Shown: positions 4,109 through 52,434, counted from the first letter of the stretch. The stretch is DNA of 64,000 nt from a phage (GCA_024613925.1 GCA_024613925.1_4713.1), one strand, 5' to 3'. Made by a program: numbers and translations. The notes: generated from the sequence alone by a model not told the origin.

Positions 4109-4140
4109 CATCCTCCCAACCCGTAAGGGAAGGGAGGATG
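4109..4140 (-). terminator. intrinsic terminator, CCTCC/GGAGG-arm hairpin family
   Basis: catcctccc / gggaggatg stem with inner ccc-gtaa-ggg; minus strand continues GGTTTTTATG; follows tmk (minus) and also abuts the plus gene 3796..4104. Confidence 0.7.
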
Positions 4141-15062: not shown

Positions 15063-15090
15063 CATCACTAAGGTAATATAGTCGTGAAAG
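15063..15090 (-). promoter_or_regulatory. conserved promoter-like motif, copy B (minus reading TTTCACGACTATATTACCTTAGTGATGA)
   Basis: near-identical to copies A, C and D; partially duplicated (catcactagg 10 nt upstream); heads the 8-gene cassette. Confidence 0.55.
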
Positions 15091-27728: not shown

Positions 27729-27738
27729 CCAAACATAA

Positions 27739-27770
27739 CCCTCCTCCAACCCAACAGGGAAGGAGGAGGG
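27739..27770. terminator. CCTCC/GGAGG-arm hairpin between convergent genes (probably bidirectional terminator)
   Basis: ccctcctcc-aacccaacagggaa-ggaggaggg; convergent gene ends at 27728 (plus) and 27780 (minus). Confidence 0.6.
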
Positions 27771-27779
27771 AATATGCTG

Positions 27780-43240: not shown

Positions 43241-43266
43241 GTCACCTAGGTAATGTAAGCGTCAAA
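43241..43266 (-). promoter_or_regulatory. conserved promoter-like motif, copy C (minus reading TTTGACGCTTACATTACCTAGGTGAC)
   Basis: near-identical to copies A, B and D; about 150 nt upstream of the start of 41656..43098 and just downstream of the terminator of the major structural gene. Confidence 0.5.
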
Positions 43267-43299
43267 TTTTTTCTATTCGCAACGTAAACGGCATAGAAA

Positions 43300-43329
43300 C
43301 CTCCCCCAACCCTTACGGGCTGAGGGAGG
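43300..43329 (-). terminator. intrinsic terminator: perfect 13-bp stem with GUAA tetraloop on the minus strand
   Basis: minus reading CCUCCCUCAGCCC-GUAA-GGGUUGGGGGAGG followed by UUUCUAUGCCGUUU; about 100 nt after the stop of 43429..45651. Confidence 0.75.
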
Positions 43330-48096: not shown

Positions 48097-48128
48097 CCCT
48101 CCTCCAACCCGTAAGGGAAGGAGGAGGG
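48097..48128. terminator. CCTCC/GGAGG-arm hairpin between convergent genes (probably bidirectional terminator)
   Basis: ccctcctcc-aacccgtaagggaa-ggaggaggg with A9 tract upstream. Confidence 0.6.
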
Positions 48129-48144
48129 GTTATGACCGCTTTGA

Positions 48145-48471
48145 TTAACTTATTGTCATGAATTCATTAGGTGAAAATTTCCAGCCGTTCTCAGTGAGAA
48201 GCGTGTTGAGTTTCGCCGCAACGATAAGCCATGCGTGCATGGCTGTTACATCGTATTGGCGATTCACTCGACGTTGGTTTTCGATATTGATTTGCTCCTG
48301 TTCAGTGATGTTTGGATAAAGTGCGATAGCGCTAGGTTTACCCAGCGCGCTAGTCATCACCGCCGTACATTCACTGATAATGTTGTTTAAGTGGTAGTTA
48401 TACACCGTTCCACGCATGACGCGATGACGGCATTCGATAATAGCGTCGTAAATGATTTCTCGAGTAATCAT
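48145..48471 (-). CDS. hypothetical protein
   Basis: 108-aa ORF. Confidence 0.4.
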   Translation of the reverse strand: MITREIIYDAIIECRHRVMRGTVYNYHLNNIISECTAVMTSALGKPSAIALYPNITEQEQINIENQRRVNRQYDVTAMHAWLIVAAKLNTLLTENGWKFSPNEFMTIS

Positions 48472-48477
48472 GATAAT

Positions 48478-48879
48478 TTAAAACATACGGTCGTTTTTAG
48501 CACGGGCGTTCATTACCAGATCGTAGATGCCTGCGGTTCGTAAGCACTCTTCGTAGTAACGATGTGCGCCTTCATCAGCCATCCATGATAACCCTCGGCT
48601 ATCCGCAACAATAACCAGTTTATTATTGTTGAACGCACACACCACACGGTAGGTCGCGTTGTTATTCGGATCGCGAGTGATAAGTTCGTAGACGCCGTTA
48701 ACAGGTTTACTGAATTCACCATTTAACGGAACGAGTTCGGTAGTACCTTCAGCAAACGTTACGTTGATCGGTGATGGATCTTTAGCGATAACAGTATATT
48801 CCACATTGTGTTCTTTACTGGTCATAATACCGAAGTAAGAACTCACAGGGGAACGTGGTACACTAAGAATATTAAACAT
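48478..48879 (-). CDS. hypothetical protein
   Basis: 133-aa ORF. Confidence 0.4.
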   Translation of the reverse strand: MFNILSVPRSPVSSYFGIMTSKEHNVEYTVIAKDPSPINVTFAEGTTELVPLNGEFSKPVNGVYELITRDPNNNATYRVVCAFNNNKLVIVADSRGLSWMADEGAHRYYEECLRTAGIYDLVMNARAKNDRMF

Positions 48880-48949
48880 AGATGTTGTCCTCTTAATTGG
48901 ATTTAGATTGTTGGGTGTGTTATTGGGAAATGAAAACGTTGTTTCGGTT

Positions 48950-49519
48950 TTAGACGATGAGTGACCAGGTAGTAAGCACCCCGCTCGCGAATTCGAGCTT
49001 AAGACGTTTACCGATAAGTTGTTGCTGGATCATCTTCTCGGTGATACGTCGATCGTGCTGAACCGCTTTATCAAACGCTTCTTTCGCTTCAGCTTGGTAG
49101 AAGTTCGTTTCTTCGTTTTCGTCGATCTCTTCGAGAGCATCGTCGTCGATGTCAGCAAGTTTCACTCGACCGTTTTCATCAGGTTGTTCTGCAGGTTCAT
49201 TGTCATAAGGCGTGTCTTTTGTTGGTGCGACACGATGTTGCAACTCGACCTGCGTTAACATGATCTCCATCTCACCATCGATAGGAATGATTTCATCGAC
49301 GCTGCCGTTTTCGGTCAACTCCCGACTTTCCAGTAATGTCGTCGTAACAGAGAACACCTCTTCAACAGGAACCTCATCATCGTCGATAGTGTTAACCGTA
49401 TTGCTGGTAACTTCAGCAACGACCATCAAATCAAATGCGTGAGGGTCACCTGGCATTTTGATTCCTGGAAGTTTGTTGAGGTACCAAGGATCAAGAATCA
49501 TGATTTCTGGATTAAACAT
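48950..49519 (-). CDS. strongly acidic hypothetical protein
   Basis: 189 aa with a large excess of D/E (for example IDDDEVPVEEVF and ADIDDDALEEIDENEETNFY). Confidence 0.45.
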   Translation of the reverse strand: MFNPEIMILDPWYLNKLPGIKMPGDPHAFDLMVVAEVTSNTVNTIDDDEVPVEEVFSVTTTLLESRELTENGSVDEIIPIDGEMEIMLTQVELQHRVAPTKDTPYDNEPAEQPDENGRVKLADIDDDALEEIDENEETNFYQAEAKEAFDKAVQHDRRITEKMIQQQLIGKRLKLEFASGVLTTWSLIV

Positions 49520-49834
49520 CGTATTTTACCTTTCTATGTTAGGTGGGTTGCGGATAGAAGAATCAATGCATAGATTGATCGTTCTTTGTTAGAAATTATT
49601 GCCGAACCGGTTATGGTTATATGGTTGGTAGTACGCCATAGGCTCCGGTTTAGGGATTTCCATGGTCGGATTTTTGGAATTGATTGCCATCACGTAAATT
49701 GTTACGGGCGATACCGCGTGATTCATTTCGACGGCCACACGGTTGTTTGATCGATTGTTCAACTGGTACTGATTACGATTGGTTGATAACAGTAGAGCTA
49801 CTGCCTAAAACTCTACCGTTGTTTAGATACCGTA

Positions 49835-50695
49835 TTAGGATATACGGTGCATCGTCGGTGCGATTGGTCGTTGACCAAGGTAGAATGTATATCTCGGACG
49901 ATTTTTCGGTGCCTGGTTCGGTTGAGGATTCTTCGAATCGATAGCTAACACGTAGTACTGAAGTGTGGGGTTGAGTGTCGTCAGATAGTTTCTGATGAAC
50001 TCCTCGTTTAAACTTTCAGTCGGGGTTAGTATGTGCCCGTTGATTGTAACGACGGTACCATCGGAACGTATTTCACGAACAATGCACCAAGCCCCCGCAC
50101 CAACATCGGTAGGAATAGTCGTGCTGGGAGTAATGGTTAGATATTTATCGAAGAATTCGCAACAAAGAGGATGCATGTAGACCGTTACGGTATCATCTCC
50201 TGGCGAGGTTCTCTCTTTTGTTACAGGATCCTTCGTCGGTACAAATGTGTTAATTTTGGCTACCTTATCAGCATCTTCGTTCGCTTCGATATAAATCTCT
50301 GCTTTACCATGTACGCTCTGAGCTATACGACGTAACTGTTCGTATGTTTTCGGTGAGGTTAGCTGTACCCGACTGAGCAGCTCATCGTACCAAGCTTCGA
50401 AGGTGCTTGTTGGTATCTTAACGTATGCCTTATTTCCGGTTTCATTTTCATCCCGGAAGATAATCGCAACGGTATCAGGCTCATCAAGAGAATCCAGGTA
50501 AACAATGTGTTCGACCAACGCAGAAAACGTTTTACGTCCGGTTCCTCCATAGTACGGGTTTGCTGAATGAACCAGCCGCCAGTTACATGAAGTTTGGATA
50601 TGATCGAAGGCGTTGATCATGTTTTTACTGTAACGAAAAATTTCAGTAAAATATTCTTTACGTTCTTTACTAAGACGTTTGTATATCTTGGTCAT
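49835..50695 (-). CDS. paralog family B member
   Basis: 286 aa; C-terminal half (YMHPLCCEFFDKYLTI ... GAGAWCIVREIRSDGTVVTINGH ... LNEEFI) matches 50749..51549. Confidence 0.5.
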   Translation of the reverse strand: MTKIYKRLSKERKEYFTEIFRYSKNMINAFDHIQTSCNWRLVHSANPYYGGTGRKTFSALVEHIVYLDSLDEPDTVAIIFRDENETGNKAYVKIPTSTFEAWYDELLSRVQLTSPKTYEQLRRIAQSVHGKAEIYIEANEDADKVAKINTFVPTKDPVTKERTSPGDDTVTVYMHPLCCEFFDKYLTITPSTTIPTDVGAGAWCIVREIRSDGTVVTINGHILTPTESLNEEFIRNYLTTLNPTLQYYVLAIDSKNPQPNQAPKNRPRYTFYLGQRPIAPTMHRIS

Positions 50696-50748
50696 TTTTG
50701 TAGCTCCTTGATTAAAGTAAGGATGGATACGATTATTTATTATCGCTT

Positions 50749-51549
50749 TTAGTTTTTACCATTCCCCCAGCAGGGTTCTTCGTAAAAATGGTGCGGATAG
50801 CGATAATGAGAATTATTGGGTCTTCCTGTCGTTTCTTTCTGTGAGTCGACGACTAACGCGTAAAATAATTGGTGCTTGTCCATCATCGAAAAGTAAGAGG
50901 CAAGCAGTTTTTCGTTTAACGCGTCGCATGGTCGACAGGTACGACCACAAAGCGTTACGATACGGCCGTCAGGATAAACTTCACGGATCGTTCGCCATTC
51001 ACCGATACCAACCGGCGATGGTGCTGATGTGCCGCCCGCTATCGTTAAATATCGGTCGTACGTAGTACGGCATTCGGGATGAACGTAAATTGGCTGGGTA
51101 TTAGTACTGTCGTTTTCGGTTTGATGTTTACTCACGTATACCTCAAGGTAGATCGTTGGTAATCCGATTAGAACGCCGGTATCACGACGTTTTTTGGTAA
51201 TCCGAGGACGGATACTATCGAGCACGCTTTCCAGTTTTTCTGCGACTTCGTCAGCCGGTAATATATACCAGTATTGTGGTTCTGGGTCATCACCATGACT
51301 GAATAAGATACGACAGTCGGTGCTATTATTTTCTTCTACTTCAGGCGGGAAGATGATGGTGTGAACCGTATGACGTTCTGCGATATAAAATCCTTCGGGT
51401 CCCTCAGTTTTGGTAAGTGTAAAGGACCAGGGTGAACAATCTTCAGGTGATAAGCCTGCTAGGAAAAAGTTCGTCCGGATTGGCGCGTCCCATTTCGTGA
51501 TCATGTTAGCGTGACCAATAACACCTAACTTTTGATAAATATCTGTCAT
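50749..51549 (-). CDS. paralog family B member
   Basis: start set at ATG of MTDIYQKLGV (51549) because the track ORF (to 51675) runs through promoter copy D and into the terminator hairpin; YVHPECRTTYDRYLTI ... GIGEWRTIREVYPDGRIVTLCG ... LNEKLL. Confidence 0.5.
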   Translation of the reverse strand: MTDIYQKLGVIGHANMITKWDAPIRTNFFLAGLSPEDCSPWSFTLTKTEGPEGFYIAERHTVHTIIFPPEVEENNSTDCRILFSHGDDPEPQYWYILPADEVAEKLESVLDSIRPRITKKRRDTGVLIGLPTIYLEVYVSKHQTENDSTNTQPIYVHPECRTTYDRYLTIAGGTSAPSPVGIGEWRTIREVYPDGRIVTLCGRTCRPCDALNEKLLASYFSMMDKHQLFYALVVDSQKETTGRPNNSHYRYPHHFYEEPCWGNGKN

Positions 51550-51604
51550 GATTGTATCCTCGATTATTAAGAGAAATTTACAATGATAACAGTAACCGCT
51601 GTTA

Positions 51605-51629
51605 TCACCTAGGTAATGTAGTCGTGAAA
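51605..51629 (-). promoter_or_regulatory. conserved promoter-like motif, copy D (minus reading TTTCACGACTACATTACCTAGGTGA)
   Basis: near-identical to copies A, B and C; about 64 nt upstream of the ATG at 51549. Confidence 0.5.
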
Positions 51630-51664
51630 TAAACTGGGGTAATGCGAAATAAGACAGCATAGAA

Positions 51665-51696
51665 CCCTCTCCCAACCCGTAAGGGAAGGGAGAGGG
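51665..51696 (-). terminator. intrinsic terminator, CCTCC/GGAGG-arm hairpin family
   Basis: ccctctccc-aacccgtaagggaa-gggagaggg; 6 nt after the stop of 51703..52434; minus strand continues TTCTATGCTGTCTTATTTCG. Confidence 0.65.
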
Positions 51697-51702
51697 AATA
51701 TA

Positions 51703-52434
51703 TCACCAATGATCGAAGGAACCAGGAGTGTTACGAACGATCTCAACTTGGAAGGTTATTGGTACTGATGGCAATGAAACATATTCGCGTTGCGATAGCG
51801 GGACGTTGTCTTCTCGCTCATCGATGCGAGCAGAACCTGTCAGAAATTGGAACATAGCGACTTGAAGCTCATCGGTGAAACGGAGGTACTCACCGATGTG
51901 TGGTGTTGCATCATATCGAATAAGTACGTTGCCAAACCGTCGTGCGATATTTGGAGTATCTGTGAACGAAACAGGGAAATCCAAAGTCATTCCCATCGTT
52001 TCACCTGGCTTCATTTTCCGAATCGACGCAATTGGCACGTCGAAGATATTCCATTCTTCTTTCATCGTGTCTGGAAACACACCGCGATACAAGATGGTCT
52101 TTTGATGACGATGAACGGGTTGTAAACGGTCAACCAATATTTTCAAAGGTTTAAGTTCTTCAGCCAATTCATAATCTGCTTGGATGTTCCACTTTGCCGC
52201 AAGTTCCATTAGGTTGGGATACGCGCTATATTTATTGACGATAGCCCAGTTAACATTACGCAAATCAATAGGAAGGAATTTGATAATTTCCTTGTTGAAT
52301 ATCCATTGGTTTAATTTCTTAATCTCCGAAAGCATGATGTACTCACTACAGCTAAACGGTTGGACGAACGGTGTTGTCTTTTTCTGGTGCAAGCCATAAC
52401 GTGACCGTACCATGGCATGTCCACTGTGGTTCAC
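51703..52434 (-). CDS. hypothetical protein
   Basis: 243-aa ORF; true start probably internal (MLSEIKKLNQ, about 52335), which removes the overlap with the upstream gene. Confidence 0.45.
   Translation of the reverse strand: MNHSGHAMVRSRYGLHQKKTTPFVQPFSCSEYIMLSEIKKLNQWIFNKEIIKFLPIDLRNVNWAIVNKYSAYPNLMELAAKWNIQADYELAEELKPLKILVDRLQPVHRHQKTILYRGVFPDTMKEEWNIFDVPIASIRKMKPGETMGMTLDFPVSFTDTPNIARRFGNVLIRYDATPHIGEYLRFTDELQVAMFQFLTGSARIDEREDNVPLSQREYVSLPSVPITFQVEIVRNTPGSFDHW

Follow-up and report, generated by a model that had tools for sequence, protein, structure and literature searches.

Accessory Loci and Early Operons in Related Systems

The internal-protein (IP) locus of T4-type phages is a hyperplastic accessory locus of virulent phage, and the IPs are small, capsid-packaged proteins with a cleaved targeting peptide. 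The gene array described here lies in a 64,000-nucleotide stretch of phage DNA (the window, to whose first letter all positions refer). It resembles the IP locus in its variable content between near-identical flanks, in holding several divergent genes of one kind that appear to be dispensable in the laboratory, and in the presence of a short conserved N-terminal sequence (MT.IY..L in the array proteins) on otherwise divergent proteins. There is no sequence relationship between the two systems, and the array proteins differ in being two-domain proteins of 254–300 residues encoded behind an early-type promoter.

Escherichia phage Goslar is the E. coli model for nucleus-forming phages. The flanks of the array in the window are 96–98% identical to this chimallivirus, and almost all of its relatives are known just as contigs of ~240 kb from assemblies of clinical E. 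coli, Salmonella, and Shigella. For jumbo phages that possess virion RNA polymerases, AT-rich motifs occurring in excess have been confirmed as early promoters (PMC7598289, PMC5312081), and 33 of the 34 early promoters predicted in AR9 were confirmed (PMC5312081; reviewed in PMC7598289). The array is similar to the virion-RNA-polymerase early operons of phiKZ and AR9 in that an over-represented AT-rich motif stands upstream of operons of small, non-structural genes (PMC7598289, PMC5312081). In contrast, the AR9 motif (AAATATATATTAT-N6-G; PMC5312081, PMC7598289) differs in sequence from the Goslar-type motif, which has the core CTATATTAC and has been seen at the sequence level only. A third comparison is offered by gp22 and gp23 of Goslar, a paralogue pair of the same lineage (DUF7941) that is likewise built from an N-terminal globular domain, then a linker, then a globular domain at the C-terminus (bioRxiv 10.64898/2026.04.21.720040). 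These are very abundant virion proteins with a Pfam family (bioRxiv 10.64898/2026.04.21.720040), whereas the array proteins A and B have no Pfam match and are absent from Goslar.

The nearest analogues of the array, namely hyperplastic accessory loci and the motif-defined early operons of jumbo phages, are organizational and not homologous. Variable accessory early-gene loci are already known, and the array proteins are already present in databases as "hypothetical"; the array is built from a protein family without detectable relatives. An uncharacterized ORFan family is of a sort abundant in jumbo phages and is not surprising there. The array locus is among the clearest differences in gene content between Goslar and its relatives, and its probable expression as soon as infection begins, the time of greatest exposure for the phage, makes it a concrete, testable candidate for host-range, counter-defence, or persistence functions. 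Goslar offers a ready knock-in background, as the array is absent there.

Organization of the Array Transcription Unit

The features of the array unit and its upstream boundary, in the order of transcription, are as follows.

51703..52335, minus strand: ORF3, 210 aa, last gene of the baseplate-hub operon (NCBI HCJ5982377)
51665..51696, minus strand: strong hairpin at the operon boundary, ending the upstream late baseplate-hub operon (−26.4 kcal/mol, z = −5.3)
51605..51633, minus strand: early-promoter-like motif of the array unit, TTTATTTCACGA-CTACATTACCTAGGTGA, over-represented and conserved
51582..51609, minus strand: leader hairpin GAUAACAG-CGGUUA-CUGUUAUC, just after the motif copy called D below (−11.8 kcal/mol, z = −4.0)
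50749..51549, minus strand: gene B (subfamily B, 266 aa), the first to follow the promoter motif
49835..50695, minus strand: gene A, 286 aa, subfamily A, paralogue of B
49589..49762, minus strand: remnant of a third paralogue, subfamily C, 57 codons (hmmsearch E = 7e-9 against the family profile)
48145..49519, minus strand: three conserved ORFans of the same operon, 189, 133, and 108 aa, homologous to Goslar gp46, gp45, and gp44
48097..48128, minus strand: closing hairpin, between the last gene (108 aa) and a convergent DnaB-like helicase gene (−30.3 kcal/mol, z = −5.1)

The unit thus runs from the promoter motif and leader hairpin through B, A, the C remnant, and the three ORFans to the closing hairpin. 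An initial sequence-only reading of this DNA had noted a promoter-like motif, copy D, just upstream of a gene pair. The motif CTAYATTACYTAGGTGA (17 nt) is a real repeated element: the window contains four minus-strand copies (2513–2529, 15065–15081, 43242–43258, and, as copy D, 51605–51621), where 0.02 would be expected. Copy D ends 55 nt upstream of the ATG of B, and in all 13–14 related loci the motif directly precedes whatever family gene or remnant comes first, irrespective of subfamily. Of the three remaining copies, two lead into runs of small ORFans and one into an operon with a polymerase-like gene (phrog_2943); within the window the motif heads solely small-ORFan or replication-gene operons and never structural genes. 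By analogy with the virion-RNA-polymerase phages, early transcription of the array unit is plausible and a well-founded expectation.

Both genes of the pair possess good Shine-Dalgarno sequences (GAGGA at 51557–51561 for B; AAGGAG at 50704–50709 for A). The start of B is the ATG at 51549, in agreement with the N-terminus MTDIYQKL of 19 database orthologues; a longer ORF for B beginning with TTG (to 51675) overlaps the promoter. The leader hairpin is kept in most of the related loci and is missing where an N-domain-only gene of 134 aa comes first, and no covariation was seen in it. Near-identical hairpins of the form CCUCUCC..UUCCCUUACGGGUUGG..GGAGAGG occur at operon boundaries at 51665–51696, 48097–48128, 4111–4138, 27737–27775, and 43290–43320, all on the minus strand. 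The first two were folded, with the energies given above, and these boundary hairpins, which lack a clear U-tract, may serve as terminators for phage RNA polymerases.

Paralogy of Genes A and B

The sequence-only reading described the two ORFs as a tandem paralogue pair with a colinear C-terminal half marked by three motif blocks, and it proposed a formal pairwise alignment as a check. Both ORFs are present as adjacent genes on the minus strand, all three blocks are found in order, and the alignment is significant rather than showing an absence of similarity. By BLASTP, A and B share 35 of 110 positions (32% identity, 55% positives, ungapped, E = 3e-21) over residues 168–277 of A and 150–259 of B. 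With this E-value and all three motif blocks present, the similarity is real and far beyond chance.

Homology also reaches past the C-terminal half. Direct profile-profile comparison of the N-terminal halves of A and B is marginal (E = 1.4e-3). Each of them matches subfamily D, introduced below, colinearly from residue 1 (hhalign probability 93–95%, E = 3e-7 and 8e-8), and on these profile matches the N-terminal halves of A and B are judged to be homologous too, with subfamily D as the link. Proteins identical to A and B are in the NCBI database (HCJ5982375.1 and HCJ5982376.1, respectively), as is one identical to ORF3 (HCJ5982377). An E. coli assembly encodes them on one contig of 238,567 bp, and each carries the annotation "hypothetical protein".

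Extent of the Family

A word-indexed search of 5.8 billion proteins returned close orthologues only (3 for A, 19 for B), and a third group, subfamily C, surfaced when a domain profile was used as the query. An exhaustive HMM search of 1.84 billion cluster representatives yielded four true clusters, one for each subfamily:

Subfamily A: cluster P0001
Subfamily B: cluster P0015
Subfamily C: cluster P0026, 291 aa
Subfamily D: cluster P0027, 277 aa

Paralogues of different subfamilies are 25–35% identical. One locus with the family was found in IMG/VR. No family locus was found in the GTDB representative genomes, and there was no match among 50,697 phage records including Goslar (tblastn with A and B), in PLSDB (tblastn with B), or in complete E. 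coli genomes (DNA megablast of the region). In the 64-kb window itself, no further family copies were found beyond A, B, and the remnant at 49589..49762. As judged from these searches, the family is confined to Goslar-like chimalliviruses.

The sequence-only reading recognized no family for these proteins, correctly, as none was recognized by any tool. Scanned against Pfam, PHROGs, PADLOC, and NCBIfam, A, B, and the full set of 26 family members gave nothing consistent, with no match to the anti-phage defence models of PADLOC, and a sequence-profile search of the PDB gave zero matches at E ≤ 10. The profile and fold search suggested with that reading was run and yielded no known family or fold; a Mop/TOBE-type small β-barrel, for example, gave no significant structural match. 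The AlphaFold2 models are of moderate quality only (mean pLDDT 67 for B and 57 for A), and the fold searches may have missed relatives for this reason.

Domain Architecture and Conserved Residues

Alignments and AlphaFold2 models divide the family proteins into three parts: a fast-diverging α/β N-domain of ~140 aa (pLDDT ~80 in B), a conserved, β-rich C-domain of ~95 aa (pLDDT ~70) whose predicted structure includes a four-strand meander, and a disordered tail rich in Tyr, His, Asn, and Pro. The boundaries in the two proteins are as follows.

Protein B: N-domain, residues ~1–147; C-domain, residues 148–240 (window 50752–51108, minus strand); then a disordered Tyr/His/Pro-rich tail
Protein A: C-domain, residues 166–260 (window 49838–50200, minus strand); then a disordered tail

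The two domains are also found singly, the N-domain in a 134-aa gene (loci L008–L010) and the C-domain in a 148-aa gene (loci L003 and L014). The conserved N-terminal MT.IY..L forms a core β-strand in the model (pLDDT 88). Seventeen positions are invariant, which in the numbering of B are Y155, H157, P158, D165, Y167, L168, I170, V180, G183, W185, R189, E190, D194, G195, T199, G202, and P207. Subfamily B, unlike A, C, and D, has a CGRTCxPC cysteine cluster within its C-domain and a basic RPRITKKRR patch where its N-domain ends.

It had been suggested at the outset that the conserved Cys, His, and Asp could form a metal site or catalytic center. The His (H175 in A, H157 in B) and the Asp (D183 in A, D165 in B) proved to be invariant, together with an Arg-Glu pair (R207-E208 in A, R189-E190 in B). 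The Cys of the HPxC motif (C178 in A, C160 in B) fared differently, being replaced by His or Tyr in subfamily C (His in most of its proteins) and by Tyr in P0025 and P0022. Because of these replacements, a Cys-dependent metal site is not a feature of the family, while the invariance of His, Asp, and Arg-Glu makes a polar functional site in the C-domain possible.

An enzymatic or metal-binding function of the C-domain, with the conserved Cys, His, and Asp as the active or metal site, is the first rival to the host-interaction reading developed below. The invariance of His, Asp, and Arg-Glu is held across four subfamilies at 25–35% identity, the substitution of the Cys by His in most subfamily C proteins would preserve a possible ligand, and the extra CGRTCxPC cluster in subfamily B would fit as well. 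No sequence or fold similarity to a metalloprotein or enzyme was found for the A/B family, and this explanation is considered unlikely.

Variation among Related Loci

The flanks of the related loci are mostly 94–98% identical at the DNA level, and the content of the array differs in almost every locus, comprising 0–3 full genes of the four subfamilies together with N-domain-only and C-domain-only fragments. This is the variable gene content between conserved flanks by which hyperplastic loci are recognized. The arrangements, in the order of transcription, are listed below.

L005 and L006: B, A, C
L003 and L014: B, A, C (148 aa)
Window: B, A, C remnant
L004: B, C
L007: B, D (295 aa)
L008–L010: N-domain-only gene (134 aa), B, D (277 aa)
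L011–L013: B, D (300 aa)
L002: A first; the contig ends there
Goslar (L001, MK327938): no family gene

At least one full family gene is thus present in 13 of the 13 related loci from assemblies, metagenomes, and IMG/VR, and only the isolated phage Goslar has none. What is left of C in the window is the last ~50 codons of the gene, which match the C-terminal end of two full-length C proteins of 291 aa, P0026 and that of L005. Relative to L005, 750 nt are deleted, the start of C included; with no ATG or ribosome binding site, the remnant is probably a pseudogene. Goslar retains a still shorter trace directly behind the promoter, MTLLIRDPSEYENTRYNHNQFGNNF, in which 13 codons from the start of a subfamily C gene and 11 from its end are fused in frame in a remnant of 25 codons. 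In the Goslar annotation, gp47 (62 aa) consists of this remnant plus an upstream extension over the promoter motif and leader, and its region (MK327938 6091–6279) corresponds to window positions 51545–51701 plus 49589–49621. The description of gp47 as a simple C-terminal remnant was therefore rejected by alignment, as the ORF overruns the promoter and the real remnant has 25 codons.

The alleles of B differ unevenly along their length. Identity between the B proteins of the window and of L003 is 31% over the N-domain and 92% over the C-domain, and between those of L007 and L011 it is 33% and 87%, respectively. By these comparisons, B alleles are mosaics, with N-domains swapped between alleles. 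The values of dN/dS among orthologues (0.09–0.3 for B, 0.04–0.22 for A, 0.17–0.7 for D) indicate that the genes are maintained as coding sequences under purifying selection. The values of dS range from 0.13 to >1 and mostly exceed by a wide margin the DNA divergence of the flanks (a few per cent), suggesting old alleles that have been shuffled by recombination. Taken together with the 25–35% identity of the paralogues, the sequences show an array that arose by old tandem duplications and is continually remodelled by deletion and by recombination in the inter-domain linker. Neutral mosaicism in a recombination hot spot could be an alternative source of the deep allelic divergence.

As Goslar lacks all of these genes, the family is probably dispensable for lytic growth, with the loss in Goslar being a single observation. 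The carrier contigs are 235–250 kb in length and are labelled E. coli, Salmonella, or Shigella, and the E. coli assembly contigs of the window type match the "persistent" Goslar-like phages of a survey in which 59 "persistent" genomes stand against one phage isolate (bioRxiv 10.1101/2024.12.31.630880). A second rival explanation takes up this contrast, holding that the array serves carrier-state persistence or superinfection exclusion in Enterobacteriaceae isolates and was lost in the one lytically propagated lineage. The presence of a full family gene in every non-isolate locus, the carrier contigs, and the survey counts would agree with such a role. However, the contrast depends on the one isolate, no observation ties the proteins to the timing of lysis or to exclusion, and laboratory phages often lose early accessory genes for unrelated reasons. 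A function in persistence is regarded as distinctly unlikely.

Likeness to NHL-Repeat Propellers

The other 133 matches of the exhaustive HMM search were NHL-repeat β-propellers (Pfam PF01436 and the related Teneurin NHL domain). The likeness resides in a C-domain hairpin, W..VREI.sDG.v.T..G or IR(K/E)I.PDG.V.T..G, of 17–21 residues that is present in one copy per family protein, while the propellers contain 5–10 repeats. The propeller matches score by adding up many repeats of one 17-aa hairpin. An NHL propeller would call for five or more tandem repeats of ~40 aa, whereas each true family match to the HMM consists of a single matched stretch. What is held in common falls short of a whole blade. 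Homology was rejected, as the similarity ends after 21 residues and there is no Pfam NHL match even at E ≤ 1. A comparison with single NHL blades is circular, its test set having been picked by that very motif. The resemblance is thus read as one of motif and not of homology or family membership.

The hairpin nevertheless enters a third explanation, in which the proteins would be accessory structural or compartment components (of the virion, the early infection vesicle, or the nuclear shell), perhaps forming oligomers to which each C-domain contributes one NHL-like propeller blade. The array adjoins the baseplate-hub operon, the 21-residue hairpin is common to the C-domain and the 133 matched propeller proteins, and the predicted C-domain contains a four-strand meander. 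On the other hand, a hairpin and an early-type promoter divide the array from the structural operon, and a complete Goslar virion is assembled without the family (virion model, bioRxiv 10.64898/2026.04.21.720040). The limits of the NHL likeness given above, with its single motif copy per protein and motif-selected test set, further weigh against this explanation, which is judged to be quite improbable.

That these are selfish mobile genes of the free-standing homing-endonuclease type, inserting and deleting at the array site, would fit the presence/absence variation between highly conserved flanks but is extremely improbable, and homing endonuclease identity was rejected, as there is no match to HNH, GIY-YIG, LAGLIDADG, or any other nuclease family, no copies occur elsewhere in the window, and the genes keep a fixed locus, tandem paralogous sets, the same promoter, and purifying selection.

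A Proposed Role in Host Interaction

It is possible, and is tentatively favored here, that the family consists of accessory proteins that work early, in the cytoplasm, to aid host takeover or counter-defence, with the C-domain as a constant module and the N-domain as a specificity module. In this mechanism, the injected virion RNA polymerase would transcribe the array unit early, and the proteins would then interact with the host from its cytoplasm in an accessory role. A constant activity or a docking function would come from the conserved C-domain, with its invariant His, Asp, and Arg-Glu, and specificity from the swappable N-domain, and the possession of several paralogues would widen the range of targets. 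The host-interaction reading is an argument from pattern, in that the genes are dispensable, variable in copy number, mosaic, probably early, and located beside another accessory gene. Against it stands the finding that no homology or fold match indicates any activity. The deep divergence of the alleles could also be neutral, as noted above, and the invariant polar residues would be as much at home in an enzyme as in a binding protein.

In a more far-reaching and speculative form, which is unlikely to hold, the proteins would be modular early effectors of jumbo phages with a new fold, built from a constant C-domain and interchangeable N-domains, with copy number and allele set tuning a host-specific counter-defence or carrier-state lifestyle in E. 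coli, Salmonella, and Shigella. If true, this would account for the loss of the whole array in the only lytically propagated isolate.

Neighboring Genes

The operon upstream of the array is the late baseplate-hub operon, which includes a 455-aa gene corresponding to Goslar gp48, the "spike cap". Its last gene, ORF3, is an accessory gene that belongs to this variable spot and that Goslar, L005, and L007 lack, and it is not a member of the family. The order of the ORF3 motifs LYRG (R84), SFTD (S123), and QRE (E184) is that of T4 ModB, as is the distance from the R to the E (~100 residues). In jumbo phages of Erwinia, Shewanella, and Klebsiella, distant homologues retain the YRG, the SFT[TD], and a conserved xE[WY] glutamate motif (QxEW or MHEW). 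Comparisons of ORF3 with ModA/ModB-type ADP-ribosyltransferases fall short of significance, with BLASTP E-values of 0.29 and 1.7 and an hhalign probability of 24%, and ORF3 may be a Mod-like ADP-ribosyltransferase, an assignment to be taken as a lead only.

At the other end of the array, the homologue of Goslar gp46 (48950..49519, minus strand, 189 aa) is a second variable gene in the array operon, with alleles of 189 and 168 aa among the relatives. The protein is very acidic (pI 4.15, 42 Asp + Glu) and might be DNA-mimic-like.
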